From an uncultured Thermoleophilia bacterium (lineage in GTDB: Bacteria > Actinomycetota > Thermoleophilia > UBA2241), in assembly GCA_963715985.1 (NCBI GenBank), contig CAVQSP010000013.1, positions 224,001 to 288,000 on the forward strand: DNA of 64,000 nt, given 5' to 3'. The position numbers were made by a program, and so were the translations under genes. Below the pieces are notes generated by a model, which saw only the letters and a list, made by a program, of their open reading frames with translations, did not search any database and was not told the DNA's origin. Positions within the stretch are counted from its first letter, which is position 1. Every line of letters begins with the position of its first letter. This document shows positions 1 to 19,676 of the stretch, one piece after another.

Positions 1-415
1 GGTCAGGGTGGCCTCTTCCTCGATCAGCCGGGCGACGATCTGCGCGGAATCGAGGGCCACGTCAACGCCCCAGCTGCGGTTGTACAGCCAGCGGTTGCGG
101 GGATTGCGGACGGCGGCGATGACCTTCTTCACCTTGTACTCGTTCTTGGCCAGCAGGCAGGCGACGAGGTTGTCCTCGTCGTCCCCCGTGGCGGCGACGA
201 ACACGTCGGCGCGGTCCGTGCCCGCCTCGAGCAGCACGCTGGGCTCGTCGGCGTCCCCCTGCAACACGGTGACTTCCGCCCAGCCGATGAACTCCTCGAC
301 CATGGCCTTGCAGCGCTGCGGCGTCCTGCTCGATGAGCGTCACGGTGTGCTCTTTGCTCACGTAGCGCGTGACGCGCCGGCCGAGCCTGCCGGCGCCGGC
401 AACGACGACTCTCAT
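1..415 (-). CDS. trkA: TrkA/RCK-family K+ uptake regulatory protein, second copy; runs off the left edge; apparent frameshift near 305-320
   Basis: MRVVVAGAGRLG (GxGxxG); continues in another frame as ...VLQGDADEPSVLLEAGTDRADVFVAATGDDEDNLVACLLAK...; ATG overlaps the upstream TGA. Confidence 0.85.
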
Positions 416-1065
416 CACTTCCACCCCATCATCTTCTGGAACGTGTCCACAGCGGATGTGTGCACCAGCACGTGCACCTGGTCGTCCTTCTCGAACGTGG
501 TTCCGGAGACCGGCAGGAACCCCCGGCCCATGCGCACGATGAGCGCGACGCGGATCTCACCGGGCACGCGGAGGTCGTTGACCGGCTTCCCGATGAAGTG
601 CTCCGGGACCCACGCGGCGAGCATCTGGATCTCGCCGTTGCCGAACGTGTGCTCGCGTTCCAGGTCGGCGCTGGTGATGAGCTCGATGATCTTGCTCGCG
701 CTCCAGGCCGTCGGCGCGAACGTCTGCACGCCGTACCGTCGGTAGATCTCGGCGCGCTGCGGGTCGTAGATGCGGCTGATCACATCCGGCACCCGGTAGA
801 CCTCCTTGGCGACACGCGCGGTCACGGCATTGGTGTTGTCGCCGGAGGTGGCCGCCACGAGCGCGTCCGCCTCGGCGATGCCGGCATCCTCCAGGACGGA
901 GCGCTCGAAGGCGTAGCCCTCAAGGGTGCGTCCACTGAAGCCGTGGGGCAGCAGGCGGAACGCCATGGGGTCCTTGTCGATGACCACGATGTCGTGGCCC
1001 TCGCGGGCGAGCGCGGCCGCGGTGTACGCCCCGACCCTGCCGCACCCGACGATGATGACCTTCAT
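415..1065 (-). CDS. trkA: TrkA/RCK-family K+ uptake regulatory protein
   Basis: MKVIIVGCGRVG, AATSGDNTN, RCK-N and RCK-C domains; ATG overlaps the ATPase stop codon. Confidence 0.92.
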   Translation of the reverse strand: MKVIIVGCGRVGAYTAAALAREGHDIVVIDKDPMAFRLLPHGFSGRTLEGYAFERSVLEDAGIAEADALVAATSGDNTNAVTARVAKEVYRVPDVISRIYDPQRAEIYRRYGVQTFAPTAWSASKIIELITSADLEREHTFGNGEIQMLAAWVPEHFIGKPVNDLRVPGEIRVALIVRMGRGFLPVSGTTFEKDDQVHVLVHTSAVDTFQKMMGWK

Positions 1066-4000
1066 CAGGCTGACTTCCTTTCGGTCGCGGTGAGGGCGGC
1101 AGGTGACGGAACCTTCCGGTGCCGCAGGAACCATTTTCTCGCCTCTTCGGCGAAGAACAAGACGACGGCCGAGATCACCAGGAAGATCCAATCGGCGAGC
1201 GTGAGCGGGCCGGTCTTGAAGATGTCGGCGATGAACGGCACGTAGGAGATGGCGAGGATGATGCCGATGCCGACGAGCTCGCCGATCACGAGGAAGCGGT
1301 TGGTGAAGAGGCCGACCTTGAAGAGCGACTCACGCTCGGTGCGGCAGCCGAAGCCGTTGGCCACCTGGCCGAACACGATGGCCGCCTGGGTCATGGTGAG
1401 GGCCTCCCGATAGACGGCGTAGTGGATGCTGGACGGGTCCATCCAGCTGGCGTCGCCCCAGGTCCAGCCGTGCGAAAGCAGCACGTACAGGAAGCCGGTG
1501 ATGGCGAAGACGGACTGGATCGCCCCGATGAATGCGACGCGGCGCAAGGTGGCTCCGCTGAGGAGGCGCTCGCTCCGCGCCCGTGGCGGCTGGTCCATGA
1601 CCCCCGGCTCCGGATGCTCGGTGCCCAGGGCGAGGCCGGGGAGGACGTCTGAGCCCAGGTCGATGGCCAGCACCTGCAGGGCGCCGAGAGGCACCAGGCC
1701 TACACCCCCGAGGGCGCAGAAGACGAAGGGGAAGAGTTCGGCCATGTTGTGCGAGAAGATGTAGGTGACCATCTTCTTGACGTTGGCGTACACCCCGCGC
1801 CCCTGCTCCACGGCCTTGATGATGCTGGCGAAGCTGTCGTCCAGCAGGATCATGGTGGCGGCCTCGCGCGAGACGTCTGTGCCCGTGAGACCCATGGCGA
1901 CGCCGATGTCGGCCTTCTTGAGGGCAGGGGCGTCGTTCACGCCGTCGCCGGTGACGGCGACGATCTGCCCCATATCCTTGAGAGCGGTCACGACCTGCAT
2001 CTTGTGCTCCGGCGCGACCCTCGCGAAGATCACGTCCTGCGGCTTCTGCAGCTCGGCCTTGAGGTCATTCTCGGTCATTGCTTCGAGGTCGACGCCGGTG
2101 ACGACGCGCACGTTCCTGTCCCCGCGGACGATGCCGATGCGGCGGGCGATGGCCTCGGCAGTCAACCCGTAGTCGCCCGTCACCATGATGATGCGGATGC
2201 CGGCCGTGAGGGCGTGCTCCACGGCCTCGCTCACCTCCGGCCGCGGCGGGTCGATCATGCCGACGAGACCGAGGAAGGTGAGGTCGGTCTCGACCGCGTC
2301 GGGAGCGTAGTCGGTGAGCTCGTTCGGCAGGTCGCGCTCGCACACCGCCAGCACGCGCAACGCCTGCCGCGACATCTCGTCGTTCTGCGCCACGATGCGC
2401 TCGCGCAGCTCGTCGGTCATGGCGACGACGTCGCCGTCCAGGCGCATGCGCGTGCAGCGCGACAGGGTCTCAGAGGGCGCGCCTTTGACGTAGGCCTTCT
2501 GGCCGTCGCCCTCCACGTGCACCACGGACATGCGCTTGCGCACCGACTCGAACGGCAGCTCGTAGATCTTGGGCCGTTCGATGAGCTCCGTCTGCAGGTC
2601 GAAGTCGGCCTTCTGTGCGGCGACGAGCAGGCAGCCCTCGGTGGGGTCACCGATCACGCGCCAGCCCTGGTCGTCCGACGGCGCCAGCACCTTGGCGTCG
2701 TTACAGAACGTCATGGCGCGCATCATCGGTTCGAGCTGCCGCCTGGCCTCCGTGCGGTCGAGCTCGGCGCCGTCCACGACGAACCCGCCGACAGGCTCGT
2801 AGCCGGCGCCGGTCACCTCGACGTCGCGCCCACCGACGGAGAGCGCCTTCACGGTCATCTCGGCCTTGGTGAGCGTGCCCGTCTTGTCGGTACAGATGAC
2901 GTTGGTGCACCCCAGCGTCTCCACGCTGGCGAGCTTCTTGATGAGCGCCTGGACCTTGGCCATGCGCTGCACGCCGATGGAGAGGGCCACGGACAGCGTC
3001 GCCGGCAGGCCCTCCGGCACCAGCGCCACCATCACACCGAGGGCGAACAGCAGCGCCGGGACGGCGCCGAAGTGGAAGACCAGGAGGGCCAGGACGAACA
3101 GCAGCACGCCGCAGAAGACGGCGATCATGGACACCGTCCGCGCCATGCGGTCGATCTCCTTGAGCAGCGGAGACCTCTCGTCGGAGACGCCGGCTGTGAG
3201 CGTGAAGATGCGCCCGAACTCGGTCTTGAGGCCGGTGTTGAACACGACCGCCCGCCCGGTGCCCGAGGCCACGCTCGTGCCCATGAAGACGAGGTTGGGC
3301 ATGTTGATGACGGCCAGCTCCTCTTCGAGGATGGGGTCGTCCGTCTTGCGCACCGCGTCCGACTCCCCCGTGAGGGCGATGTTGTTGGTCGAGAGCTCGT
3401 ACTGGCGCACGACGCGGGCGTCGGCGCTGATGCTGTCGCCCTCCTCCAGGACCAGCAGGTCGCCGGGGACCAGATCCTTGGCGGCGACCATGGTCACCTC
3501 GCCGTCACGCACCACTTTGGCGTTCGCAGGCACCAGCTTCTGCAACGCTTCGGTCGCCTTCTCGGCCCGGTACTCCTGGAAGAAGCCGATGATGCCGTTG
3601 AGGAGCACGACGCCGATGATGGCGACGGTGACGTTGATGTTGTCCTGGCGAGCCGAGCCGGTGGACAGCATGGCGGCGACGAAGACGAGGACCGCCGCCA
3701 CCTCGAGCATGATCGCGAAGAGCGACGTGAACTGGTCGAGGAACTTGTAGATGATCGGGCGGCTGACCTTGGCGGGCAGCACGTTGTGCCCGTACTGCTG
3801 CAGCCGCTTGAAGGCCTCGTCCTCAGTCAATCCCGCGGACGACGAGCCGAGGCGCTCGTAGACCTGGTCGTCGGGGAGCTGCCAGAGCTCGGCCGCCGGC
3901 GCGGGACCGGCCGGCCGGTCAGGCGCCGAGCCGGCCGGCCCGCTGCCGTTGCCGCCCGTCCGGTGGACGAGCGCCGGCGAAGCCGGGTCATCCTCGTCGG

Positions 4001-4067
4001 GCAGCATTGCCTGGACCCGTGAAGGGCGGATCTCCGCCCGTGTCGAGATGTGGTCATGCGGCGTCAA
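1065..4067 (-). CDS. Cation-translocating P-type ATPase, type II, Na+/K+-ATPase-like (P2C-like), about 1000 aa
   Basis: TGES, VALVPEGL, DKTGT, KGAP, TGD, GDGVNDAP, TM6 LAIDLGSDVLP; TTG start at 4067 inferred from a GGAGG RBS. Confidence 0.9.
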   Translation of the reverse strand: MTPHDHISTRAEIRPSRVQAMLPDEDDPASPALVHRTGGNGSGPAGSAPDRPAGPAPAAELWQLPDDQVYERLGSSSAGLTEDEAFKRLQQYGHNVLPAKVSRPIIYKFLDQFTSLFAIMLEVAAVLVFVAAMLSTGSARQDNINVTVAIIGVVLLNGIIGFFQEYRAEKATEALQKLVPANAKVVRDGEVTMVAAKDLVPGDLLVLEEGDSISADARVVRQYELSTNNIALTGESDAVRKTDDPILEEELAVINMPNLVFMGTSVASGTGRAVVFNTGLKTEFGRIFTLTAGVSDERSPLLKEIDRMARTVSMIAVFCGVLLFVLALLVFHFGAVPALLFALGVMVALVPEGLPATLSVALSIGVQRMAKVQALIKKLASVETLGCTNVICTDKTGTLTKAEMTVKALSVGGRDVEVTGAGYEPVGGFVVDGAELDRTEARRQLEPMMRAMTFCNDAKVLAPSDDQGWRVIGDPTEGCLLVAAQKADFDLQTELIERPKIYELPFESVRKRMSVVHVEGDGQKAYVKGAPSETLSRCTRMRLDGDVVAMTDELRERIVAQNDEMSRQALRVLAVCERDLPNELTDYAPDAVETDLTFLGLVGMIDPPRPEVSEAVEHALTAGIRIIMVTGDYGLTAEAIARRIGIVRGDRNVRVVTGVDLEAMTENDLKAELQKPQDVIFARVAPEHKMQVVTALKDMGQIVAVTGDGVNDAPALKKADIGVAMGLTGTDVSREAATMILLDDSFASIIKAVEQGRGVYANVKKMVTYIFSHNMAELFPFVFCALGGVGLVPLGALQVLAIDLGSDVLPGLALGTEHPEPGVMDQPPRARSERLLSGATLRRVAFIGAIQSVFAITGFLYVLLSHGWTWGDASWMDPSSIHYAVYREALTMTQAAIVFGQVANGFGCRTERESLFKVGLFTNRFLVIGELVGIGIILAISYVPFIADIFKTGPLTLADWIFLVISAVVLFFAEEARKWFLRHRKVPSPAALTATERKSA

Positions 4068-4127
4068 GCGTCGCCTCCATCTGCTGCCGCCTGATAGCGC
4101 AGGCGGAAACGGCACATACGACATCAG

Positions 4128-4192
4128 AGGGTAGCGAGCAGCCCGTGAACCCGGCGTGAAGCAGGGGCCCCGGACCCTCAAGAAGCCGTTAA
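4128..4192 (-). promoter_or_regulatory. Putative KdpE-box promoter P4, upstream of ATPase-trkA-trkA
   Basis: TTAACG-N5-TTGAGG-N15-TTCACG-N5-TTCACG-N10-TACCCT; same spacing as three other promoters in the locus. Confidence 0.75.
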
Positions 4193-5339
4193 GGCTCCGG
4201 CGCGCCTTGCTCGGATCTGCCACGATGAGGATGTCGACGTGCTCCATGTCCCGCATGAGCCGCATCACGAGCGGCGAGCCGCGCAGCACTTCGTTGGCGC
4301 GGCTCCGCTTTGACTGGCCGAGCACGATGAAGGTGGCGCGCTTCTGGCGTGCGAACTTCAGGATCTCCTCGGCGATCGAATCGCCGCTGAGCTCCACGGC
4401 ATGCCCGCCGAGCTCGTGGGTCAGATCGAACAGGCGCTTGAGCTCCTTCGTGTGGCCGGGCGACTGCGGCCCCTTGTGCACGTACACGACCCAGAAGGGG
4501 CCCCGGAAGCGGTGCGCCAGACGGTGACCACGGCGCACCAGCTTCGCCGCGACCTGGCCCGGCCGCAGGCAGACCACCACCCGCTCCTCCGTCGTCAACG
4601 GGCGCTCGGTCTCGCGGCCGGAGATGTAGCGCTCCAGGCTCTCGTCGACCTCCTCCGCGGCCTTGCGCAGCGCCAGCTCGCGGAGGGCGACCAGGTTCTC
4701 CTGCTTGAAGAAGTTGGCCAAGGCACCGGGCACCGTGCCGAGGTCGTAGATCACACCGCGCCGGAGCCTGTTGAGGAGGGCATTGGTGGTGAGGTCCACG
4801 AGGACGATCTCGTCGGCGCGGTCGAGCACGAAGTCCGGCACGGTCTCCTGGACACGCACACCCGTGATCTGGAGCACGGTGTCGCTGAGGCTCTCCACGT
4901 GCTGGATGTTGACGGTGGTCAGTACGTCGATGTCGGCGGCGAGGATCTCCTCCACGCTCTGCCAGCGCTTCTTGTGGGCGGTCCCGGGGATGTTGGTGTG
5001 CGCGAGCTCGTCAACGAGAGCCAGCGACGGCGCACGAGCGATGACCGCCGCGGTATCGAGCTCATCGAACGCTTTGCCGCGATACTCGAGGCGCTTGAGC
5101 GGCACCTGCTCCAGGCCCTCCGCCGCCTCTGCGGTCTCCTTGCGCCCGTGCGTCTCCACGAAACCGATGACCACGTCCTCGCCACGCGAGCATCGCCGCT
5201 GGGCTTCGGCCAGCATCATGTAGGTCTTGCCGACGCCCGGGGCGTAGCCAAGGAAGACCTTCAGGTGACCGCGCTTGCGGAGCGTGCGCAGCGACAGCAC
5301 CTCCGCCACATCGTTCGCGGCTGCCCGATCGTTCGCCAT
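4189..5339 (-). CDS. kdpD: KdpD N-terminal module (KdpD domain + USP); as sequenced it reads through into the ATPase
   Basis: GHLKVFLGYAPGVGKTY Walker A, ETHGR, LVDELAHTN, LRELALR, USP domain; out-of-frame TAA at 4189-4191. Confidence 0.88.
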
Positions 5340-5929
5340 CAGCGTCGGGCGACGATACCGCCGCCTGCCTGGTCCAGAGCCAGGTTCAGCGCCAGGACGT
5401 TGACGCGGGGCTCACCCAGGAATCCGAACTGCCGGCCGGTCGTGTGCGCCTCGATCAGCGCGAGCACCCGCGACACCTGCAGGTCTCGCGCTGCCGCGAC
5501 ACGTGGAGCCTGGGCGCGAGCGTTGGCGATGGTGATGTCCGGGTCGAGTCCGCTCGCCGACGTCGTCACCATGTCGATGGGCACCTGCCCGATCTTGAGT
5601 CCGGGGTTCGCCGTGGTCGCGGCAATCACATCTGCTCGTACCCTGTCACGCAAGACCCTGCTCGTCGGGCCGAGGTTGGAGGACGACGAGCTCATCGCGT
5701 CGTAGCCCGCGCCTGCGGCCGAGGGGCGCGGGTGGAAGTAGCCGGCGGCGCTGAACTCCTGGCCGATGAGCGACGAACCGATCGCCCTGCCGTTCACCTT
5801 CACGATGCTCCCGTTCGCCTTGCCCGGGAACAGGATCTGGGCCGCGCCCGTCATCGCGAAGGGATAGATGAGGCCGAGGACGACCGCCGTGACGATCAGC
5901 ATACGGAGCGCGATGAAGGTGGTGCGCAC
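5339..5929 (-). CDS. kdpC: K+-transporting ATPase subunit C
   Basis: GSSLIGQ, YFHPRPSA, SNLGP, TTSASGLDPDI, EPRVNVLALN. Confidence 0.96.
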   Translation of the reverse strand: MRTTFIALRMLIVTAVVLGLIYPFAMTGAAQILFPGKANGSIVKVNGRAIGSSLIGQEFSAAGYFHPRPSAAGAGYDAMSSSSSNLGPTSRVLRDRVRADVIAATTANPGLKIGQVPIDMVTTSASGLDPDITIANARAQAPRVAAARDLQVSRVLALIEAHTTGRQFGFLGEPRVNVLALNLALDQAGGGIVARR

Positions 5930-5939
5930 GACTCCCCTC

Positions 5940-8036
5940 CTATCCCGCGAGACCGAGGGCGACGAGGACGAGGTCTATGGCCTTGATGCCCACGAACGGT
6001 GCGATCACGCCTCCGAGGCCGTACACGAGCAGGTTGTAGCGAAGCAGTGCGGCGGCGCCGATGGGCCTGAACTTGACTCCGCGCAGGGCGAGCGGGATCA
6101 GGAGCACGATGATGATGGCGTTGAAGATCACCGCCGAGAGCACAGCACTGTGCGCCGAGTGCAGGCGCATCAGGTTGAGGGTCTCGAGCTGGGGGAACGC
6201 GACCATGAACATCGCCGGGATGATGGCGAAGTACTTGGCTACGTCGTTGGCGATGCTGAACGTGGTCAGAGCGCCGCGCGTTATGAGCAGCTGCTTGCCG
6301 ATCTCCACGATCTCGATGAGCTTGGTGGGATTGGAGTCGAGATCGACCATGTTGCCGGCCTCTTTGGCGGCCACGGTGCCGGAGTTCATGGCGACGCCCA
6401 CATCGGCCTGAGCCAGGGCCGGGGCGTCGTTGGTGCCGTCCCCCGTCATCGCCACGAGCTTGCCGTTCTGTTGCTCCCGCTTGATGAGCTCCATCTTGGT
6501 CTCCGGCGTCGCCTCGGCGAGGAAGTCGTCTACGCCCGCCTCCTCTGCGATGACCGCGGCCGTGAGGGGGTTGTCCCCGGTGATCATGACGGTGCGGATG
6601 CCCATGGCGCGGAGCTGGTCGAACCGCTCGCGGATGCCGCCCTTGACGATGTCCTTCAGCTGGACGACGCCGAGCGCTTTGTCGTCGCGCGCCACGGCCA
6701 GCGGGGTGCCGCCTTCGTTCGAGACGCCCCTCATGGCCGCCTCGAGCTCGGGGGGCACCTCGCCGCCACGACTGCGGACCCAGCTGACGACCGCGTCACC
6801 GGCGCCCTTGCGGATCGCGTGGCCGTCGATGTCGATCCCGCTCATGCGCGTCTGCGCCGTGAACTCGACGAAGACGGCGTGTTCGGGATCGATGTGGCGA
6901 GCCCTGATCCCATACTGCTTGGCGAGCACCACCACCGAACGGCCCTCGGGCGTCTCGTCGGCGAGTGACGCCAGTTGGGCCGCGTCCGCCAGCTCCTGCT
7001 CCGTGACGCCGGGCACGGGGAGAAAGGCCACCGCCTGGCGATTGCCGAGCGTGATCGTGCCCGTCTTGTCGAGCAGGAGCACATCCACGTCGCCGGCCGC
7101 CTCCACCGCGCGGCCGGACATCGCCAGCACGTTGTGCCGCACGAGGCGGTCCATGCCGGCGATGCCGATGGCGGACAGCAGGCCGCCGATGGTGGTCGGG
7201 ATGAGGCACACGAGGAGGGCGATGAGCACGGTGGGCGAGACCGGCGCGCCGCTGTACACGGCGTAGGGCTGCAGCGTGACGACGACGATGATGAAGATGA
7301 TCGTGAGCCCGGCGAGCAGGATGTTGAGGGCGATCTCGTTGGGCGTCTTCTGGCGCTCCGCGCCTTCGACGAGCGCGATCATGCGGTCGAGGAACGTCTC
7401 GCCCGGGTCCGAGGTGATCTCCACCACGATGCGGTCAGACAGCACGCGGGTGCCGCCGGTGACGGCGCTGCGGTCGCCGCCGCTCTCGCGGATGACCGGC
7501 GCCGATTCGCCCGTGATCGCCGACTCGTCCACCGAGGCGATGCCTTCGATGACCTCGCCGTCGCCGGGGATGATCTCGCCCGCCGTGACGACGACGACGT
7601 CGCCACGACGCAGCTGTGCGCTCGGCACCTGGGTGATCGTGCCGTCCACCCGAAGGTTGGCCAGCGTCTCGGTGCGCGTGCGGCGCAACGCCTCGGCCTG
7701 CGCCTTGCCGCGCCCTTCGGCCATGGCGGTGGCGAAGTTGGCGAACAGCACGGTGAACCAGAGCCAGGCGGAGACGGAGCCCACGAAGAAGAGGGGTCCG
7801 CCGCGGAACAGCTCGTCGAGAAACGCGATGGTGGTGATGACGCTCCCCACCTCCACCACGAACATGACGGGGTTGCGAGCCACGTCGCGGGGGTCGAGCT
7901 TGACGAACGAGCGGCCGATGGCGGGCCAGATCAGCTCCCGCATGGACGCCCGCTGCGGCTTGGGCGTCGAGCCACTCGGCACGATGTCCTGCTGCGTCCC
8001 CGCCTGCTCCGTCGGCTGCTCCATCCTGGTCGCCAT
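5940..8036 (-). CDS. kdpB: K+-transporting ATPase subunit B
   Basis: [45 protein letters not shown]. Confidence 0.98.
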
Positions 8037-8046
8037 GCCCGCGCCT

Positions 8047-9771
8047 CTAGAAGACCTTGCCCGCGTGCATCAGGAGCTGCTCCAGGATCGGCCCCAGCGC
8101 GAGTGCGGGAAGGAAGGTGAGGGCGCCGACGATCAGGATCACACCCACGAGCAGCACGACGAAGATGCCCCCGGTCGTGGGGAACGTGCCGCTGGACTCG
8201 GGCACGTGCTTCTTGGCCGCCAGTGAGCTCGCCAGTGCCAGACACGGGATGATGAAGAAGAAGCGCCCCCAGAGCATGGCGAGGCCACCGAGCGTGGACC
8301 AGAACTTGCCGCTCACGGTCAGACCGGCGAACGCACTGCCGTTGTTGCCCGTCTGTGAGAAGGCCGCATACAGGATCTCCGACAGCCCGTGCGGCCCCTG
8401 GTTGAGGATCGCGTCCCTGCCTGCGGGGACCACGCTCGCCAGCGCAGAGAGGCCCAGCGCCGCGACGCTGAAGTAGAGCACGGCGAGCACGGCCAGCTTC
8501 ATCTCCCGGGCCTCGATCTTCTTGCCGAGGTACTCCGGCGTTCGGCCCACCATGAGGCCCGCGATGAAGACCGCGAGGATCGCCATGACCAGGAGGCCCA
8601 TCAGACCGACACCGACTCCCCCGAAGACCACCTCGCCGAGCGCGATGTTGAGCATCGCCATGCCTCCGGCGAGCGGGGTGAGACTGTCGTGCGAGGTGTT
8701 CACGGCGCCGGTGGACGTGTCCGTGGTGATGTTCGCCCAGAGGGCGGAGTTGGCGATGCCGAAACGCACCTCCTTGCCCTCCTGGTTGCCGCCGGACTGG
8801 GTCGACGTCAACGCCTGGTTCGCGCCCTGTGCGGTGAGGATGGGATTGCCCGCCTGCTCGCTCCAGTACATGACCGCGACGCCCATGACGAGGAGCGCGC
8901 CGGCGGCGGCGAACAGCGCCCATCCCTGCCGCTGGTTGCCGGCGAACCGTCCGAACGTGTACGTGAGCGCGGCCGGGATGGCGAGGATCGCCAGCATCTC
9001 GATGAGGTTCGTGAGCGGCGTCGGATTCTCGTACGGGTGCGCCGAGTTGGCGTTGTAGGAACCGCCGCCGTTCGTCCCCAGCTCCTTGATGATCTCCTGC
9101 GAGGCGAACGGGCCCTGCGCGATCGTCTGCGTCACGCCCTGGACGGTGAGGGCTTTGGTGGGCGCGTTCAGGTTCTGCACGACGCCCTGCGAGACCAGCA
9201 CCAGCCCGCCGACGATGGAGATGGGCAGCAGGATCCAGACGATGCTGCGCGTGAGGTCGACCCAGAAGTTGCCCAGCTCCTTCGTGGTGTGCCGCGTCAG
9301 CCCGCGGATGAAGGCGACGGCGACGGCCATCCCGATCGCGGCCGAGACGAAGTTCTCGCGGGCGAGGCCGAGCATCTGCGTCAGGTAGCTGACCGACGTC
9401 TCCGGGACGTAGACCTGCCAGTTCGTATTGGTCGAGAAACTCACGGCCGTGTTGAACGCGACCCAGGGATCCATGCCGGGGACGTGCGCCGGGTTCAGGG
9501 GCAGGTGGCCCTGGAGGCGGAGCAGGACGTAGAGGAAGAGGAGGATGACGAGGTTGAACACGAGAACGGCGACGACGTACCCCCCAACGCCCATCTCGCG
9601 CTTCTCGTCCACACCGGCAAGTCGGTAGATGAGGCGCTCGACCGGGCGGGCGACGGGGTCGAGGAACGTCCGCTCGCCGCGGTAGACGTGCGCCATGTAG
9701 ACGCCGAGTGGCTTGGTGACCAGCACCACCAGCACGAGCAGGATGACGATCTGGAGGATCTCCCAGGCCAT
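8047..9771 (-). CDS. kdpA: K+-transporting ATPase subunit A
   Basis: Filter motifs TNTNWQ, GTNGGG, TSTGAV, GNNGSAF; also EGKEVRFG and [12 protein letters not shown]. Confidence 0.98.
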
Positions 9772-9777
9772 GGCGTC

Positions 9778-9867
9778 TCAGAACTTCTCCGGCCGCAACA
9801 GGGCGTAGAAGACATAGGCCGCGAGGCACGCCGCGACGATCAGGAGGACGATGTTGATGGCGCTCAT
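9778..9867 (-). CDS. kdpF: KdpF small subunit, 29 aa
   Basis: MSAINIVLLIVAACLAAYVFYALLRPEKF has the KdpF C-terminal Y..YALL.PE.F pattern; directly upstream of kdpA. Confidence 0.92.
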   Translation of the reverse strand: MSAINIVLLIVAACLAAYVFYALLRPEKF

Positions 9868-9875
9868 CGGGACCC

Positions 9876-9959
9876 TCAGAGCCGCGGCGCCACACGGGCG
9901 TACGCCGCCGCGGCCAGGAAGAAGACGAGCACGAGCGCGATGAAGGCGAGGTCTCCCAT
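9876..9959 (-). CDS. 27-aa hydrophobic peptide upstream of kdpF
   Basis: MGDLAFIALVLVFFLAAAAYARVAPRL; fits the gap before kdpF; GC3-rich codons. Confidence 0.7.
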   Translation of the reverse strand: MGDLAFIALVLVFFLAAAAYARVAPRL

Positions 9960-9983
9960 AGCATGCTGCGGTCCGGAGGCGGG

Positions 9984-10227
9984 TCAGACGTGCTTCTCGC
10001 GCAGCGCGCTTGCCTTCTCGCGCGCGACGCGAGCTGTCTGCGGACTGCGCCGCTGTGGTCGCGGTGAGATGACGAGGACCGATACCGGCGTCTCGATCGC
10101 GCCGCTGCCGGCGCAGGTGGACCTGCTCACGCACGCCGGCCTGGATCGCCCACGCCAGAATGCCGACGGCCAGCATCACGGCAGCGATCATGACGATCTC
10201 GATGAGGATCTCTCCAACCAGCATCAT
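9984..10227 (-). CDS. Small single-TM protein, paralog C (about 80 aa if one extra base is removed; as sequenced it reads into kdpF)
   Basis: MMLVGEILIEIVMIAAVMLAVGILAWAIQAGVREQ...; AGGAGG RBS; follows promoter P3. Confidence 0.7.
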
Positions 10228-10275
10228 GTCGGCCTCCTGGGTGGTCCACTGGCGTGGCGTGACTGCTACACAGGG

Positions 10276-10340
10276 ACCGTACCCGGGGCTGCCTTAAGGA
10301 GCCGTGAACGAGCCTCCGACCCTCATTAAGACTCCGTGTA
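10276..10340 (-). promoter_or_regulatory. Putative KdpE-box promoter P3, upstream of paralog C and kdpFABC
   Basis: TACACG-N5-TTAATG-N15-TTCACG-N5-TTAAGG-N10-TACGGT. Confidence 0.78.
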
Positions 10341-10422
10341 GGCTTGCGGCGGTCAAGCCAGCCGGGCTGGAGAGCTAAGCCGCGGCGTCAGCTTCGACAC
10401 GCGGCGCAGGGTGGTGGAGCGT

Positions 10423-10641
10423 CTAGGGACGCGACAGCCAGTGGGGAAGAAGCAGCGCAACGCGCCGGCCGAGAGGCGACGGCGTCGAGGCTACCGCGCG
10501 TGGGGACTTCCGCCTTCTGCCGGGCCGCGTCCTGGGCGACGTCTCGACAAGAGTCACGCGCAACAGGTACACAATGAAGACGACCGCGGCGACGACAGCG
10601 GCGATCACCACGATTCCGCTCACGATCGAGTACAGTTCCAT
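10423..10641 (-). CDS. Small single-TM protein, paralog B, 72 aa
   Basis: MELYSIVSGIVVIAAVVAAVVFIVYLLRVTLVE plus an Arg-rich tail; AGGGGG RBS; follows promoter P2. Confidence 0.72.
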   Translation of the reverse strand: MELYSIVSGIVVIAAVVAAVVFIVYLLRVTLVETSPRTRPGRRRKSPRAVASTPSPLGRRVALLLPHWLSRP

Positions 10642-10687
10642 GACAACGACCCCCTGGGGAGCGCCTGAACAGCATGCCTATGCTCCG

Positions 10688-10752
10688 ACGGTAGTCGTCG
10701 TGCCGTGAACGTGCCGTGTAGGCGGGGGGGTGCGGCATCAAGAACCTGTGAA
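10688..10752 (-). promoter_or_regulatory. Putative KdpE-box promoter P2
   Basis: TTCACA-N5-TTGATG-N15-TACACG-N5-TTCACG-N10-TACCGT. Confidence 0.75.
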
Positions 10753-10811
10753 GGCGGAAGCCGGTGGAGAGCGGCCGATCCCGGCTCGCGTGGCGCCGGC
10801 GCTCCGGCGCC

Positions 10812-11516
10812 TCAGCCGTCGGACGGTGGCGTGAGGCGGAACCCCACCCCGGGCTCCGTGACGATGTGTCTGGGGCCGCCGGGCGTCTCGATCTTCTTGC
10901 GCAGGTGGCTCACGTGCACGCGCAGCGTCTGCGCGTCCTCCACCCATTCCGGTCCCCAGACCTGCTCCAGGATCATCTTCTGGGTGACCACCAGCCCCGC
11001 GTTGCGGGCCAGGAAGGCGAGGATGTCGAACTCGGTGGGGGTGAGGGAGACGTCGCGCCCGCCCAGTGTGACGTGGCGGCGCGCTATGTCCACGGTCAGG
11101 TCGCCGACGGTGATCTGCGGCGGCGGCGAGGTCAGCGCAGCGGCCCGCCGCAGCAACGCCCGGATGCGCGCCAGCAGCTCGCCCGCCGAGAACGGTTTTG
11201 TGAGGTAGTCGTCGGCGCCCTCGTCGAGCGCCCGGATCTTGTCCGCCTCCGCGGAGTGGACCGACAGGATGAGGATGGGGGCGCTGCACCAGGTGCGCAG
11301 CTCCCGGCAGACCTCGATGCCGCTCATGTCGGGCAACGCCAGGTCGAGGACGACGAGGTCAGGCGGCGTGTCGATGGCGTGCAACAGCGCCTCCTGCCCG
11401 GTCGCGACCAGATCCAGTGCGTAGCCGCGCGTCCTCAGGATCGACGTGAGCGCACGCCGGATCTGCTCCTCGTCGTCCACCACGAGGACGTGCACCGGGC
11501 GTTCCGGGATGCTCAC
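10812..11516 (-). CDS. kdpE: OmpR-family response regulator KdpE
   Basis: VLVVDDE, LDLALPD, GADDYLTKPF, LTPTEF, LRVHVSHLRKKIE, TEPGVGFR; GTG start overlaps the kinase stop. Confidence 0.9.
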   Translation of the reverse strand: MSIPERPVHVLVVDDEEQIRRALTSILRTRGYALDLVATGQEALLHAIDTPPDLVVLDLALPDMSGIEVCRELRTWCSAPILILSVHSAEADKIRALDEGADDYLTKPFSAGELLARIRALLRRAAALTSPPPQITVGDLTVDIARRHVTLGGRDVSLTPTEFDILAFLARNAGLVVTQKMILEQVWGPEWVEDAQTLRVHVSHLRKKIETPGGPRHIVTEPGVGFRLTPPSDG

Positions 11517-13024
11517 GTGGGCTCCTCTCGCGTCCCGTCTGTCGGCAGCGTGATCACGAATCGAGCCCCGTGCGGGACCACATCCTCCACGTGCACCGTG
11601 CCGCCGTGCGCGCGGACGATCTCCCGCGTGATGGCGAGCCCGAGGCCGGTGCCTGAGGGAGCTGCGGCACCGGCTCCGCGGCCGCGGTAGAACTTCTCGA
11701 ACACGGCCTCGTATTCGGCGGCGGCGACGCCCGGTCCTTCGTCCTCTACCCACACTCTCAGGGCGCGATGCGACTCTCGCGCGCCCACCGTGACCGTGGT
11801 GCCGGCTCCGCCGTACAGCATCGCGTTCTCGAGCAGGTTCTGCACGACACGCACCCACTGGCTGTAGTCGACGAGCACCGGATCCAGGTCGTCGGGGATG
11901 TCCAGCTTGACCTTGTCGCGCTGATGGGCGGGGAGGGTGTCGACGCCGGCTGCGACGATGTCACTCAGGTCGTACATCTCGCGCCGTGGCTCCCACGTGT
12001 GCGCCTCGAGCCTCGACAGGTCGAGCAGGGCGCTGATGCTGCTGTTCAGCCGGGTGATATCGCCCACGATCGAGCGCAGCTCGTCGCGCACGCTCTCCTC
12101 GTCCCACTGTACGTCGCTCTCGAGCAGGTTGCTCACTGTGGCCGTGAGCGCCGCCAGCGGCGTCTTGAGCTCGTGCGACACGGAAGAGAGCAGGCTCGAC
12201 TTGAGGCGGTCCGCTTCGCGGCCCGCCTCGGCCCGCGTCGCCTTGGCCTGCAGTTCCTGGCGCTCCAGGAACGCGGAGACGAGGTTGGCCAGGGAGGTCG
12301 CCAGACGCAGGTCGGCCGCCGTGAAGGCGCGGCCACCGGCGGCCGCGCTCACGCTGAGGACGCCGAAGGTCGTCGAGGAGCTCTGGAGCGGGAGGGCGAG
12401 GTCGGGCTCGGCCATGCCTTTGTACGACCCCTGAGGCCCGCCGCCGGCGTACACGCGCTCGGCCTGCTCGACCGTCTTGGCCGGCGGAACGACGTGCGCC
12501 GGCCAAGAGCAGTACGCCCTGAGTTCCCCCTGGTCCGGGAGGAACAGCGTGGCCGACGCCACGCCGAGCTGCTCGACCACCTCGCGGGCCACGGCCTGCG
12601 CCATGGCGGCGGTGGACGTCTGGGACACAAGCTCTGCGCTCACGCGGTTGAGCGTCATCGCTTCGTCCTCCCGCGAGATAGCTCTCGCCTCCCGTTCGCG
12701 CATCCGGCCCGCCATGATGCCGACGATGACGCCGACGATGAGAAAGGCGACGAGCGACAACCAGTCCTTGGGATCCTGGATGGAGAGGGTGTGATACGGC
12801 GGCAGGAAGAAGAAGTTCCAGGAGAAGAAGGCGAGCACGGCCGCCACGACGGCCGGTCCGGCGCCTGCGGCGCTTGCCACCAGCAGGATCACGAGCAGGT
12901 ACAGGAGCGCCCACTGCTCTTTGGCGAACATCTCTCGCCCGGGGAGGAAGATGAGAGTGGAGACAACGACAGCGAGGACCCCGACGATGTAACCGCGACT
13001 GGCGAGGCGCCTGACCCGGTTCAT
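11513..13024 (-). CDS. kdpD: Sensor histidine kinase, KdpD C-terminal part (DUF4118 TM region, GAF, HisKA, HATPase)
   Basis: WNFFFLPPYHTL, SVSHELKTPL, NLLENA, EDEGPG, FEKFYR, GTGLGL; lacks the KdpD N-terminal domain. Confidence 0.88.
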   Translation of the reverse strand: MNRVRRLASRGYIVGVLAVVVSTLIFLPGREMFAKEQWALLYLLVILLVASAAGAGPAVVAAVLAFFSWNFFFLPPYHTLSIQDPKDWLSLVAFLIVGVIVGIMAGRMREREARAISREDEAMTLNRVSAELVSQTSTAAMAQAVAREVVEQLGVASATLFLPDQGELRAYCSWPAHVVPPAKTVEQAERVYAGGGPQGSYKGMAEPDLALPLQSSSTTFGVLSVSAAAGGRAFTAADLRLATSLANLVSAFLERQELQAKATRAEAGREADRLKSSLLSSVSHELKTPLAALTATVSNLLESDVQWDEESVRDELRSIVGDITRLNSSISALLDLSRLEAHTWEPRREMYDLSDIVAAGVDTLPAHQRDKVKLDIPDDLDPVLVDYSQWVRVVQNLLENAMLYGGAGTTVTVGARESHRALRVWVEDEGPGVAAAEYEAVFEKFYRGRGAGAAAPSGTGLGLAITREIVRAHGGTVHVEDVVPHGARFVITLPTDGTREEPT

Positions 13025-13204
13025 CGTCGACTCCTCCTGGCGGGGTTTCCGTCGCCGCGGGAGGCATCAGTCCTCACGGGCGCGGTAGTCTGTTCGCAAC
13101 AGACAGTAGCACTGCCCGGTGGGAATCGTCGTCATCATGAGGGCGAGCGCGCAGCCGAACCGGGCGCGACTCGTGGTACGCCATCGGTCCCGTCGGTCGT
13201 GGTG

Positions 13205-13456
13205 TCAGGGGTGGTGCTGGAGCGAGTGAGAGGGAGCCGCGGCCGGCGCCGGAGTGCGCATGATCATCGCGTGCGCCGGTTCGGGGACAGAGGCGCGCCG
13301 CGCGGCACGCTCACGACGATAGTCGTCCAGGAACGCCAGTTCTTCGCGGTGCTCCCACCAGACCAGGGCTATGAAGTAGGCGATCAAGGCCACCCCGCCC
13401 ACACCGGCGATGATGGCCGCGAGCTCGATCACGACCTCTGCGATTCCTGCGACCAT
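13205..13456 (-). CDS. Small single-TM protein, paralog A, 83 aa
   Basis: MVAGIAEVVIELAAIIAGVGGVALIAYFIALVWWEH...RRERAARR; GGAG RBS; follows promoter P1. Confidence 0.72.
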   Translation of the reverse strand: MVAGIAEVVIELAAIIAGVGGVALIAYFIALVWWEHREELAFLDDYRRERAARRASVPEPAHAMIMRTPAPAAAPSHSLQHHP

Positions 13457-13508
13457 CGTCTGCTCCCGAGTCCTCCGGCATGGCCCGCGGCACGCGGAGC
13501 CTGACCAA

Positions 13509-13573
13509 GACGTACCCGGGCGGTCATAAAGGACGTGTGAACTGTGCCTACTGCCGTCTAAAGATTCCATAAA
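13509..13573 (-). promoter_or_regulatory. Putative KdpE-box promoter P1
   Basis: TTTATG-N5-TTTAGA-N15-TTCACA-N5-TTTATG-N10-TACGTC. Confidence 0.75.
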
Positions 13574-13678
13574 GAGGTCGCTGTCCGACGCGCGGCAGGC
13601 GAAGCCGGGCCCGTGACGCGCAGGCACGGTCTGGATGAGAAGGACACAGGGCAGATGGCCGTCGGAAGGAGGAGAAGG

Positions 13679-13754
13679 TGGTGCCCCCAACGGAATTCGA
13701 ATCCGTGCCGCCGGCTTGAAAGGCCGGTGTCCTAGGCCGCTAGACGATGGGGGC
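13679..13754 (-). tRNA. tRNA-Glu(TTC)
   Basis: 76-nt cloverleaf, GCCCCCA/TGGGGGC acceptor stem, anticodon loop CTTTCAA, TTCGAAT, encoded CCA; TATACT -10 upstream. Confidence 0.97.
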
Positions 13755-13865
13755 ACGATGACGCGCCTCGGGGAGTATACCCGACGACCGCGGCGCGACG
13801 TTCGCGCGAGGCCGCGCGTCCGGTAGGCTTGCGGGCGAGGTCGCAGCAGCCGGCGGGAGGTGGGC

Positions 13866-15174
13866 ATGGAGTATCCGTTCGTCATCGACGGTGCGGCCGG
13901 GAGGGACGTCGTGCTCCCGGCCATGCACGAAGTGCGCCAGCAGTTCGACGTCCTGCCGGAGGTCGACGCCAGGGCGGAACTGGCGGAGGAGTGGCCGCGC
14001 GCGGCGGAGCAGCTGGCGCGGCTCAGGCCCGGGGCGAGCATCGCCGTCGCCGTGGGCAGCCGCGGGATCACCGGGATCGCGGACATCGTGCGCGACGTCG
14101 TCGCCCGCCTCCGCGCCGCAGGCTGCGAGCCCTTCATCGTCCCCGCCATGGGCTCGCACGGCGGCGCCACCGCCGAAGGCCAGACCGGGGTGCTCGCCAG
14201 CCTGGGTGTCACCGAGGAGGTCGTGGGCGCGCCCGTGCACGCCACCATGGAGGTCGTCTCGCTGGGCGAGGCCGACGGCATCCCGCTGTACCTCGACCGC
14301 TTCGCCTGGGAGGCCGACGGTATCGTCCTCATCAATCGTGTGAAGCCGCACACCGACTTCCACGGTCATGTCGAGAGCGGCCTCATGAAGATGATCGTCA
14401 TCGGCCTTGGCAAGCAGGCCGGCGCCGAACACTACCATCGCCTCAGCGTGGTGCGCGGCCTCGCCGACACCGTGCCCGTGGCCGCGCGGGCGCTGCTCGA
14501 GCGCGCCAACGTGGTGTTCGGCGTCGCGCTCGTCGAGAACGAGGAGCATCGCACGGCCGCAGTGCGCGTCGTGCCGCCGGAGGAGATCGAGGAAGCGGAG
14601 AGCGTCCTGCTCGATCTGGCGCGGTGGCACCTGCCCGACCTGCCCGTCGACGACATCGACCTGCTGATCCTCGACGAGATGGGCAAGGAGATCAGCGGCA
14701 ACGGCCTGGACCCGAACGTGACCGGCCGCAACGTCACACCGTGGGCCGCGCACCCGCCGCGCCCGCGCGTCTCGCGCATCTTCGTGCGCCAGCTCACCGA
14801 GGCCTCGCACGGCAACGCCTGCGGCCTCGCCTGCGTGGACGCCGTCCCGGCGCGCTTTCTGGAACGCTTCGACTACCGGGCGACGCTGATGAACGGCTTC
14901 ACGTCGGCGGCGCCGGAGGACGGCAAGATGCCGATGGTCTTCGCCGCCGACCGCGACGCCGTCACCACCCTGCTCACGGTGATCCGCCCCACCACGCCCG
15001 AGGACGTGCGCGTGGTGTACGCGCGCAACACGCTGGAGGTGGCGCGCCTCTGGGTGTCGGCCGGCTGCCTGCCGGTGCTGCGGGAGCAGCCGGCCTGCAC
15101 GGTGGACGACGCGCCGCGGGCGCTGCAGTTCGACGCGGCCGGCGGCCTTGATCTCGCCCTTCGTGAGCGCCTGA
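13866..15174 (+). CDS. Lactate racemase (LarA/DUF2088) domain protein; probable frameshift near the C-terminus
   Basis: IAVAVGSRGI, PAMGSHGGATAEGQ, NRVKPHTDF, ESGLMKM, GKEISGNGLDPNV; alternative frame ends ...LISPFVSA* at 15174 (ORF track runs to 15425). Confidence 0.8.
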
Positions 15175-15282
15175 CGACGCCGCGCGGGGGAGCTGCGCGG
15201 AAGCGTACGCGTAGCGGCGGGCGGAAGCCCTGTGGCTTCCGCCCGCCGTGCACGGCTCGTGGTCCGTTCGGCTATCCGCGGC

Positions 15283-15552
15283 TCACACGACGGGGCGACC
15301 GAAGCTTGCGGCCGCCCGGTCCGGGGCCGTCCCACGCGGTGTGGAGACGGCGTCACCGAGACCGCGCACCACTTCCATCACACCGAACCACGGGGCGTGG
15401 TCGTTGGCTGCCTTGCGCATCGTGATCACCGCTCTTCCGTTCGTCGCCGGCGGCTCGGACGCGCCTCGCGCACGAGGCGAGCACGATCCGCGGTCCGCTG
15501 CAGCTCCGTCGATCTGCTGCTTGACCAGATCCCAGGCCATGAACCCGTACAT
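15283..15552 (-). CDS. Hypothetical protein, 89 aa
   Basis: ORF with a GGAAGG RBS downstream of a consensus promoter. Confidence 0.5.
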   Translation of the reverse strand: MYGFMAWDLVKQQIDGAAADRGSCSPRARGASEPPATNGRAVITMRKAANDHAPWFGVMEVVRGLGDAVSTPRGTAPDRAAASFGRPVV

Positions 15553-15602
15553 CTGCGCTCACTTCCTTCCAGCCCGGCCTGCCTCTCTCGGCACCGTTGC
15601 GA

Positions 15603-15668
15603 AACCTGTGAAACTTATTATACCGGTTATCAGGTAACTAGTCAAACAGGTTTGCCGGTTGGTATAGT
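15603..15668. promoter_or_regulatory. Divergent promoters with two candidate operators
   Basis: Minus strand TTGACT-N17-TATAAT (15645-15617); plus strand TATAGT at 15663; AACC-N18-GGTT and AACT-N17-GGTT. Confidence 0.65.
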
Positions 15669-15695
15669 GAGGTGAGTCGACGAGGAAGGCCACCG

Positions 15696-16266
15696 ATGCC
15701 GGCACAGTCAAAGGAAGCACCAGGGGATCTGGCTGCTCGTGCGCGGGTTCGTGAACACCCTGGACATCGATCTGGGGAAGGAGACGCTCGACACGCCGGA
15801 GAATCTGGCCGCGTGGCTGCGGCAGGCCGGGCTGCTGGCGAGAGAAGGATCGACGGGCGCCGAGGCTCTGGAGCGCTCGCTTGCGCTCCGCGAAGCTCTG
15901 CGCGAGCTGTTGCTCAGCAACAACGACGGCCATCCGCCCGAGCCGTCCGCCGCGGTGGCCCTCGACGAGGTCGCCGCTCGTGCCGGCCTGCGGCTGCGCG
16001 CGGGCGCGGACGGCCACACGTGGCTGGAGGCGCAGGCGCCGGGAGTGGACGGCGCTCTGGGACGCCTGATGGTGATCGTCCACGAATCCATGGCGGCCGG
16101 TACGTGGGCGCGGCTCAAGGCCTGCCGCAACGACACGTGCCGGTGGGCATTCTACGACCACTCCAAGAACCACTCCGGACACTGGTGCACGATGTCGGTG
16201 TGCGGCAACCGGCAGAAGGTCCGCGGGTACCGCGAACGGAACAGGGCCGGCGCGTCGCGGGCTTGA
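15696..16266 (+). CDS. CGNR zinc finger/ABATE domain putative regulator; frameshift near 15730
   Basis: FVNT, RLKAC...C.WAFYDHSKN...WCTMSVCGNRQKV. Confidence 0.9.
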
Positions 16267-16295
16267 GACGCGCGGCCGGCCGCGGCAAGGTCGGG

Positions 16296-16371
16296 TGGTG
16301 GGCCGCACAGGGATCGAACCTGTGACCTTGGGATTAAAAGTCCCCTGCTCTACCAACTGAGCTAGCGGCCC
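16296..16371 (-). tRNA. tRNA-Lys(TTT)
   Basis: 76-nt cloverleaf, GGGCCGC/GCGGCCC acceptor stem, anticodon loop CTTTTAA, TTCGATC, CCA; TACAAT -10 upstream. Confidence 0.97.
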
Positions 16372-16599
16372 GGGAGCGCGATTGTACCACCGCCGGCACG
16401 GGGGTCGTGACCGCACGAGCCAGGCCCTGGGGCGGCCCTCCGCCCGACCCTCATGGTGCGTCGCACGGTGAGGTCGAGGCCGGACCGGCCGCCGCCGATC
16501 CCGCCCTTCGAGCGCACATCCCTGACCTTGAAGGAGAGCCTGAAGAAAGCCGGCCGCCAAACCCCTTGCATTGCCGGATCGGGGGCGTAGAATGCGCCT

Positions 16600-16695
16600 A
16601 CCCTAAGTCGTGAAGGTTCGCTGGATCGGCAACGGGGCGTTCGGGTGAGAGGCCCGAAAGAGCCGCCGGCCGCGAGGTCTGGCGGCTCTTTTGTT
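16600..16695 (+). ncRNA. Candidate small RNA or short-peptide transcript
   Basis: TTGCAT-N16-TAGAAT (16566-16593), about 60 nt of sequence, then an intrinsic terminator; no long ORF. Confidence 0.4.
16657..16695. terminator. Intrinsic terminator, possibly bidirectional
   Basis: AAAGAGCCGCC...GGCGGCTCTTT stem with T-runs on both strands. Confidence 0.8.
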
Positions 16696-16747
16696 GCGCA
16701 GCCTGCCCTTCCGCGAGGGCACGGCGGCGCCGCCTTCTCGTCGCCCT

Positions 16748-17915: not shown

Positions 17916-17943
17916 GCCGCCCCCAGACGACTGCAGGCCGCCG

Positions 17944-19491: not shown

Positions 19492-19676
19492 GCTCCTTCG
19501 GACGGAGTACCCCTGGGTGCCGGCCCACCCTGCCGGCCGCGGCCCGTGTACGCGGGCTCCCTCGCCGCAAGCCTACAAGAAAGGCGACACACGAGGAATA
19601 GGCCGCGGCGTCGGCCCCCCCGGCCCGTGCCCGGAGGAGACCGGCGTAGTCTTGGCGCTCGCCGCGTGCCGACGAC

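Follow-up and report, generated by a model that had tools for sequence, protein, structure and literature searches.

What controls the kdp locus of an uncultured Thermoleophilia bacterium, and why does one promoter-like element occur in it four times? The locus was analyzed in a stretch of 64,000 nucleotides (nt) of contig CAVQSP010000013.1 (positions 224,001 to 288,000; the window). It carries genes for the K+-uptake ATPase KdpFABC, the sensor kinase KdpD and KdpE, a response regulator, together with genes for small membrane proteins, a second P-type ATPase and two TrkA-like proteins. An initial annotation had assigned four elements of 65 base pairs (bp), P1 to P4, to KdpE. Judged by their sequence, P1 to P4 are a real feature, selected for half-site sequence and spacing, and they are probably KdpE-activated promoters with two operator boxes, each promoter bound by two dimers of phosphorylated KdpE (KdpE~P). 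KdpD/KdpE is a textbook two-component system, from which a full-length structure of a regulator on its DNA has been obtained. The KdpE box and the control of kdpFABC by KdpDE are already known. The present analysis adds the conservation across phyla with spacing controls, the E. coli match, a broader list of targets and the interpretation of a mycobacterial site as one inverted box.

Architecture of the four elements

Each element has the layout 6-5-6-15-6-5-6-10-TAnnnT. The half-sites, C-TTnAYR, share the same face of the helix, at offsets of 0, 11, 32 and 43 bp, and TAnnnT follows 10 bp further on. They form two boxes, each a pair of TT-initial 6-bp direct repeats 5 bp apart, and this was found in all four sites and in their orthologues. 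If transcription is assumed to start 7 nt after TAnnnT, the upstream box extends from -71 to -55. In P1 to P4, four in-phase half-sites are present, the proximal box covers the -35 position, and a canonical -35 is lacking. No canonical sigma70 -35/-10 pair was found in positions 3800 to 13800, and a search of positions 1 to 20000 for riboswitches or other RNAs returned two tRNAs only.

The coordinates, the minus strand, the hexamers and the spacers of 5, 15, 5 and 10 nt were reproduced exactly (Table 1). The same applies to the statement that the spacers differ in sequence but are fixed in length. Pairwise identity was 0.57 to 0.83 in the hexamers and -10 and 0.29 to 0.49 in the spacers (random, 0.29), indicating that P1 to P4 are not plain DNA repeats. 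In near-identical strains, four of the five changes in P4 fell in spacers and one at a loose sixth position, although these numbers are small.

The occurrence of the motif was compared with the background of the 4.35-Mb genome (8,699,168 positions). A matrix made from the four sites scored P1 to P4 at 42.0 to 43.6 bits, the four best positions. The next-ranked position was the reverse strand of P3 (19.9 bits) and the best unrelated one reached 14.1 bits. Within this genome the element is confined to the kdp locus. With leave-one-out matrices the held-out site was always in the top four and above the whole background. A matrix from 123 sites of other genomes again placed P1 to P4 on top, with one poly-T tract as the sole intruder.

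Probable assignment to KdpE

The boxes very probably belong to KdpE, as initially proposed. The half-site pair agrees with the KdpE site of E. coli, and the regulator encoded in the locus, which is paired with KdpD, keeps the equivalents of R193, R200 and T215, the DNA-binding residues named in PMC3264566. KdpE was the best of 107 models for this protein. The genome contains nine full-length OmpR-like genes including kdpE, and the element was found at the kdp locus only. The local targets named at the outset (three small proteins, the second P-type ATPase and kdpFABC) also held, and orthologous loci keep them. The reach of the element had been understated, since different phyla share the layout, and E. 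coli has it as well.

Conservation within the genus

All 11 same-type kdp loci retrieved from the genus carry the element before the small gene and kdpF. Before the second ATPase, the exact spacing was found in eight of ten orthologous loci; in the remaining two, which come from indel-rich assemblies, reading by eye showed the boxes, but their central gaps measure 14 and 17 nt. Among 27 sites from relatives, which had been selected with the motif, information was concentrated in the four half-sites (C-TTnAYR) and in the T, A and T of the -10.

The pattern gave 81 matches in 38 of the 54 genus genomes, compared with four for a reversed-pattern control. A match was present in all 31 genomes that contain this KdpE (E ≤ 1e-75) and in 7 of the 23 without it; the genomes being kin and not independent, a Fisher value overstates this association. 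Two of these seven genomes have a broken-up kdpE beside the sites. In several genus genomes the fetched region contained kdpDE and small genes only. In L324, L326 and L328, the ATPase and trkA genes directly follow kdpDE and the promoter, and no kdpA is present in the region.

Other arrangements were also observed among relatives. In L031 (13167-15675), L032 (12059-14567) and L335 (508-4541), kdpDE adjoins three or four trkA-like genes, together with trkH in L335. A second kdp type of the genus has the double box inverted before kdpA at an offset of 32 (L043, 10616-10964; L044, L045, L048 and L049). In these five loci the inverted box ends about 28 nt before TACCGT or TACGCT, with an ATG 6 to 7 nt later (by eye), which suggests a leaderless transcript.

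Comparison with known systems

The kdpF promoter of E. coli K-12 reads TTTATA-5-TTTACA-15-TTTGCG-5-TTTGCA-10-TACCCT. The matrix built from the four sites of the window ranked it first of 20,874 positions (20.7 versus 8.0). The described E. coli KdpE site consists of two 6-bp repeats 5 bp apart with a footprint from -72 to -50 (PMC3264566). The upstream box falls on this footprint, and the second pair is located at about -39 to -23, where the box scores lower (9.7 versus 13.0 upstream). The region is present in 5424 of 5426 E. coli genomes at ≥95% identity, which says little about selection. The elements of the window share the regulator family, the DNA-binding residues and the main target with the E. 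coli kdpFABC operator. In contrast to the operator as described, with one box, they have a second box conserved 32 bp downstream. Four promoters are present here, whereas KdpE of E. coli is reported in PMC5934670 to have a single target. Neither this geometry nor a second KdpE box was found described in the open-access literature, although older footprinting papers or supplements may mention a second site.

In M. smegmatis, the 22-bp KdpE footprint (PMC5401905) reads on the other strand, in our interpretation, as TTGATG-N5-TTTACG, one box of the present consensus. The authors of that study saw no similarity to the E. coli site (PMC5401905). Unlike the elements of the window, the M. smegmatis site is inverted relative to kdpFABC.

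Two other activators of the OmpR/PhoB family provide a comparison for the double box. The proximal pho box of PhoB is located about 10 bp before the -10 and replaces the -35, and the pho boxes are direct repeats with an 11-bp period. Tandem pho boxes are contiguous, have another consensus and leave no free turn between them. In the GlnR activation complex of actinobacteria, four protomers are bound head-to-tail to two boxes around -35, the upstream pair in a class I-like and the downstream pair in a class II-like manner (PMC10235972). The present elements resemble this in having four half-sites in two boxes around -35, here known from sequence. They differ in regulator, consensus and signal, and also in spacing: the two 22-bp GlnR boxes are six nucleotides apart (PMC10235972), whereas the boxes here start 32 bp apart and leave one turn free.

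Occurrence outside the genus

An exact-pattern scan with one genome per species returned at least 121 loci across many phyla. Bacillota, Desulfobacterota, Bacteroidota, Chloroflexota, Acidobacteriota, Armatimonadota, Planctomycetota, Pseudomonadota and others were represented among the matches listed. The 80 of these with long flanks were sorted by hand. Of these, 41 (two being the same contig) were located before kdpA, and 13 preceded trk genes, 5 kup and 6 KimA-like genes. Three were before or within kdpD/kdp genes, and in four the gene downstream was another APC permease with a kdpE-like gene beside it. Six preceded unrelated genes, and two had no data. Among the matches listed, 68 of the 78 informative loci were at K+-related genes. 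KdpE does not bind the trkA or kup promoters in S. fredii (PMC9239096), indicating that such targets are lineage-dependent. The unpublished genome G258 was excluded from all counts.

The spacing was also examined in metagenomes with the gaps left free (central, 4 to 27; last, 8 to 12; 120 combinations). The 15/10 combination accounted for 47 of the 152 distinct matches. Gaps of 13-15/10-11 were found in 26 of the 27 matches with a K+-related gene downstream, and the 27th was a second reading of one such site. Tandem repeats of 11 bp accounted for the peaks at 16 and 27 and for some of the one at 5.

A sample of 78 regions upstream of kdpA was chosen without the motif (21 Actinomycetota, 12 from the class of G218, 16 Bacillota and 29 Bacteroidota). 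The centre genomes and two loci lacking upstream DNA or a complete match were left out (L376, L381 and L407), and L414 repeats a training site. The best box-to-box offset was 32 in 31 of the 78 regions. Strong double boxes were present in 27, of which 25 had an offset of 31 to 33, compared with none of the 78 coding controls. In several of the actinobacteria sampled, the double box was inverted relative to kdpA and the offset was still 32. The promoters of Duffyella and Caballeronia have the layout; Enterobacterales were represented by E. coli K-12 and Duffyella only, both with it. The two-box design is widespread but not universal, occurring at about a third of kdpA promoters, and appears to be an old and widely shared design for K+-uptake genes.

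Several further loci were noted in these searches. The inverted double box with an offset of 32 was also observed in L351, L353, L354, L356, L358 to L361 and L387. At L073 (8001-8066, plus strand), an exact double box precedes two open reading frames (ORFs; 248 and 925 amino acids) without a Pfam match; kdpA is located elsewhere in this genome with its own double box, and the L073 site is a candidate distant KdpE target. At L051 (5378-5443, minus strand), an exact double box precedes genes for a peptidase C39 ABC exporter and HlyD, and a kdpE-like gene is present 1.6 kb away on the other strand. A separate class has four contiguous half-sites of the TTGAC type (gap 5), placed 10 nt ahead of TAnnnT (L222, L223, L226, L236, L241, L259, L260 and L268). 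It occurs in GC-rich metagenome contigs in which no K+ gene was detected and probably belongs to another OmpR-family regulator.

Proposed mechanism and alternative explanations

Regulators of the OmpR/PhoB type bind such repeats head-to-tail. Under K+ limitation, the membrane half of KdpD would phosphorylate KdpE. One KdpE~P dimer would then bind head-to-tail to the site known from E. coli, at about -71 to -55. A second dimer would occupy about -39 to -23 and stand in for the -35 element. The downstream dimer may recruit RNA polymerase via sigma region 4 and the beta flap, and the upstream dimer may work via the alpha subunit, as in the GlnR complex. The need to keep both dimers in phase with the polymerase would fix the geometry. 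The regulon of this genome would be confined to one locus, in which P3 would drive a small protein, kdpFABC and the KdpD N-terminal gene, P2 a small protein, and P4 the Na,K-ATPase-like pump with two TrkA proteins. P1 probably drives small protein 1 and kdpD-kdpE: no terminator-like site was found between small gene 1 and kdpD, and a P1-equivalent site precedes kdpD in L031, L032, L328 and L332. Through P1, we infer positive autoregulation of kdpDE. Occupancy of the second box is likely in this organism and moderately probable in E. coli.

Several observations weigh against this explanation. The published E. coli footprint, as cited in PMC3264566, covers the upstream box only. The downstream half-sites of E. 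coli carry G where the tested sites carry A, and in the first four bases single changes gave partial binding and double changes loss of binding (PMC3264566). M. smegmatis gave one footprint (PMC5401905). A cryo-electron microscopy study with KdpE, polymerase and a kdpFABC promoter derivative reported no ternary complex and no cross-link, and treated the region of the second pair in E. coli as polymerase-binding DNA (10.1101/256826). The KdpE motif from chromatin immunoprecipitation in Caulobacter differs from the present one. TTnAYR half-sites are generic for the OmpR family, and the regulator of the window scored 230 bits against the NCBIfam KdpE cut-off of 325. In the surveys, the exact pattern was derived from this genus and therefore over-samples promoters of this form. 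No K+ gene was detected at 30 of the 47 metagenome matches with 15/10 gaps, many of which have short flanks, and 51 of the 78 sampled kdpA promoters were without a strong double box. The layout was not seen at the Rhizobium, Acetobacter, Deinococcus, Listeria innocua and Parabacteroides plasmid loci.

KdpE may instead bind the upstream box only, the downstream pair being a KdpE-box look-alike that acts as a sigma or alpha contact or in DNA bending. This would agree with the single footprint in each of E. coli and M. smegmatis, with the TTGACA-like sequence of many downstream hexamers and with the lower score of the downstream box in E. coli, P2 and P4. However, measured from their ends, the downstream hexamers are 21 and 10 nt away from the -10 and not 16 to 18 nt, so that neither is a canonical -35. 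Like the upstream box, the downstream box keeps the consensus, a 5-nt spacer and a C preceding its second half-site. A core-promoter contact would not account for the 32-bp offset being retained even in elements that are inverted as a whole relative to kdpA. Upstream-only binding is considered unlikely. It is far more doubtful that another OmpR-family regulator (PhoP/PhoB-, MtrA- or GlnR-like) binds the element, or that KdpE and another regulator take one box each. The half-site type is common across the family, eight other full-length OmpR-like genes are available in the genome, and KdpDE and PhoRB cross-talk in E. coli (PMC5458449). Nevertheless, the element tracks the KdpE orthologue, its targets across phyla are K+-uptake genes, and the sites elsewhere in the genome that a global regulator would need were not found.

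Local duplication of a promoter together with a small gene probably seeded some of the copies, as small proteins 1 and 3 resemble paralogues and the spacers of P1 and P3 are 0.49 identical. That the four copies are simply leftovers of this process, with the spacing due to descent and not to selection, has very little probability. The spacers are mostly at or near random identity although the cores are kept, P4 has no small gene, and the same spacing is found in unrelated phyla and in E. coli. Duplication as the sole explanation is largely refuted. Activation by two KdpE~P dimers remains the preferred reading.

P4 and the second P-type ATPase

In this assembly, an open frame of 1424 codons (1065-5339) contains P4 and fuses the KdpD N-terminal gene with the second ATPase, a feature overlooked in the initial annotation. 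A KdpD-ATPase fusion protein was considered and rejected. The frame stops 7 to 27 codons after the KdpD N-terminal match in all ten orthologous loci, and all four near-identical public contigs that bridge 4094-4248 have an extra base at 4202/4203. The frame shifted by this base runs into a stop codon within the first P4 half-site. Among the loci compared, the fusion frame was seen only in this assembly; protein databases were not searched for such fusions. A one-base deletion in this sequence is the most likely cause of the apparent fusion, and the stop of the KdpD N-terminal gene most likely overlaps the first half-site of P4. The ATPase likely starts at a TTG behind GGAGG, 60 nt after the P4 -10, a distance that resembles the 46 to 52 nt at P1 to P3.

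The best solved relatives of the ATPase were Na,K-ATPase alpha subunits (503 bits, 2e-149), compared with 477 bits for SPCA1 and 461 bits for SERCA. The pump resembles the Na,K-ATPase (P2C) in M4 PEG, M5 N..E and M6 IDLGSD. The M6 two-aspartate motif (IDLGxD) is present in all 11 sequences, as IDLGSD here and IDLGTD in Na,K-ATPase, and Ca pumps have asparagine at that M6 position. Unlike in Na,K-ATPase, N replaces the M8 aspartate and H the M5 serine, and trkA genes follow the pump; the M5 glutamate is Q in 5 of the 11 orthologues. The full P2C set of Na+/K+ site residues, including the M8 aspartate, is thus not present. No subfamily cut-off was reached, and the Ca-pump model was slightly ahead of the P2C model (TIGR01522, PMR1-type Ca, 621 bits against a cut-off of 798; TIGR01106, 579 against 946).

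A full-length or near full-length orthologue of the pump was found in 16 of the 54 genus genomes. The dedicated KdpE-type promoter and the linked trkA genes suggest that the pump functions in K+ uptake, which seems moderately probable. The P2C family includes uncharacterised archaeal homologues, and according to a 2023 review the role that Na,K-ATPase homologues play in prokaryotes is an open question (PMC10654040).

Two variants of the pump were observed, one with PEGM and HNMAQ (L033, L035, L036, L038 and L040) and the other with PEGL and HNMAE (the window, L034, L037, L324, L326 and L336). They may differ in ion specificity. The second trkA-like gene of the window (62-424, minus strand) appears frameshifted relative to its orthologues.

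Small membrane proteins and gene content

At 36 of the 57 sites examined, the element is followed by a small ORF encoding one hydrophobic helix and a basic tail. No family above cut-off was found for the small proteins in Pfam and NCBIfam, and the matches in an Atlas search were all below 0.9 and unnamed. Small proteins 1 and 3 look paralogous. The 72-amino-acid protein behind P2 was missed by the script that collected the small-protein family. The frame of small protein 3 reads in frame into kdpF in the window (149 codons, 9778-10227), whereas its orthologues stop after about 50 to 80 codons; the read-through is possibly another indel. In L329 (8065, plus strand) and L331 (8378, plus strand), a double box divergent from a kdpD/kdpE-like pair precedes a conserved, soluble-looking protein of 60 amino acids without an assigned family.

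On the minus strand, tRNA-Glu and P1 are followed by a small gene, the membrane/kinase half of kdpD, kdpE, P2, another small gene and P3, and then by a third small gene, a 27-codon ORF, kdpF, kdpA, kdpB, kdpC, the KdpD N-terminal gene, P4, the ATPase gene and two trkA-like genes (Table 1). The 27-codon ORF was found by tblastn in 5 of 11 orthologous loci and also in L328. KdpE is 79 to 83% and KdpA 80 to 81% identical to three records titled Thermoleophilia. The N-terminal domain of KdpD acts as a KdpB serine kinase (PMC11018627). Beyond the tRNA-Glu gene are a gene with a lactate racemase N-terminal domain (13860-15425, plus strand) and a tRNA-Lys gene (16296-16371, minus strand), for which no link to the regulon was seen.

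Table 1. Features of the kdp locus, with positions in the window (aa, amino acids)
Feature	Position	Strand	Remarks
P1, two KdpE-type boxes and -10-like TACGTC	13509..13573	-	TTTATG/TTTAGA/TTCACA/TTTATG
P2, two boxes and TACCGT	10688..10752	-	TTCACA/TTGATG/TACACG/TTCACG
P3, two boxes and TACGGT	10276..10340	-	TACACG/TTAATG/TTCACG/TTAAGG; conserved position before small gene-kdpF-kdpABC
P4, two boxes and TACCCT	4128..4192	-	TTAACG/TTGAGG/TTCACG/TTCACG; putative internal promoter for second ATPase and trkA genes
tRNA-Glu	13679..13754	-	Directly upstream of P1; neighbour, outside the regulon as far as tested
Small protein 1, 83 aa, single-helix membrane protein	13205..13456	-	Start 52 nt after P1 -10; belongs to the small-protein family behind these promoters
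KdpD membrane/kinase half	11513..13024	-	DUF4118, GAF, HisKA, HATPase; without N-terminal KdpD/Usp domains
KdpE-like response regulator	10812..11516	-	50% identical to E. coli KdpE; R193, R200, T215 equivalents kept
72-aa protein, N-terminal hydrophobic stretch	10423..10641	-	Start 46 nt after P2 -10
Small single-helix protein 3	9960..10227	-	Start 48 nt after P3 -10
27-aa hydrophobic ORF	9876..9959	-	Just before kdpF; kept in relatives
kdpF	9778..9867	-	After the 27-aa ORF
kdpA, kdpB, kdpC	5339..9771	-	kdpA 8047-9771, kdpB 5940-8036, kdpC 5339-5929
Stand-alone KdpD N-terminal protein	4189..5339	-	KdpD domain and Usp; G-X5-GKT Walker A
Type II P-type ATPase, ~1000 aa	1065..4067	-	Closest solved relatives Na,K-ATPase alpha subunits
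Two trkA-like (RCK) genes	62..1065	-	After the ATPase; second runs off the window

Implications

On its own, the local regulon would be an ordinary kind of switch. A broader picture combines four KdpE protomers at many promoters, an overlooked second site in E. coli, a cross-phylum detector of K+ starvation, a lead on the pump and a new family of small proteins; as a whole it may prove right or wrong with about equal probability. The open-access literature appears to offer no settled account of how KdpE reaches the polymerase from -72 to -50. A box at about -39 to -23 would allow a direct test in E. coli K-12 and would provide a better DNA template for structures. If the site is real, it could explain why the KdpE-polymerase complex escaped capture.

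With its strict geometry, the 65-bp signature would serve as a cross-phylum detector of K+-starvation regulons, whose members could be called by sequence. This would widen the targets of KdpE beyond kdpFABC to Trk, Kup and KimA-type importers, which KdpDE would run in genomes or loci where kdpFABC is absent. The small ORFs behind the promoters would represent a new family of small membrane proteins. In this lineage, the promoter would tie a Na,K-ATPase-like pump to K+ starvation. Induction of this pump with its TrkA partners would give a lead, K+ scavenging, for the role of uncharacterised prokaryotic pumps.

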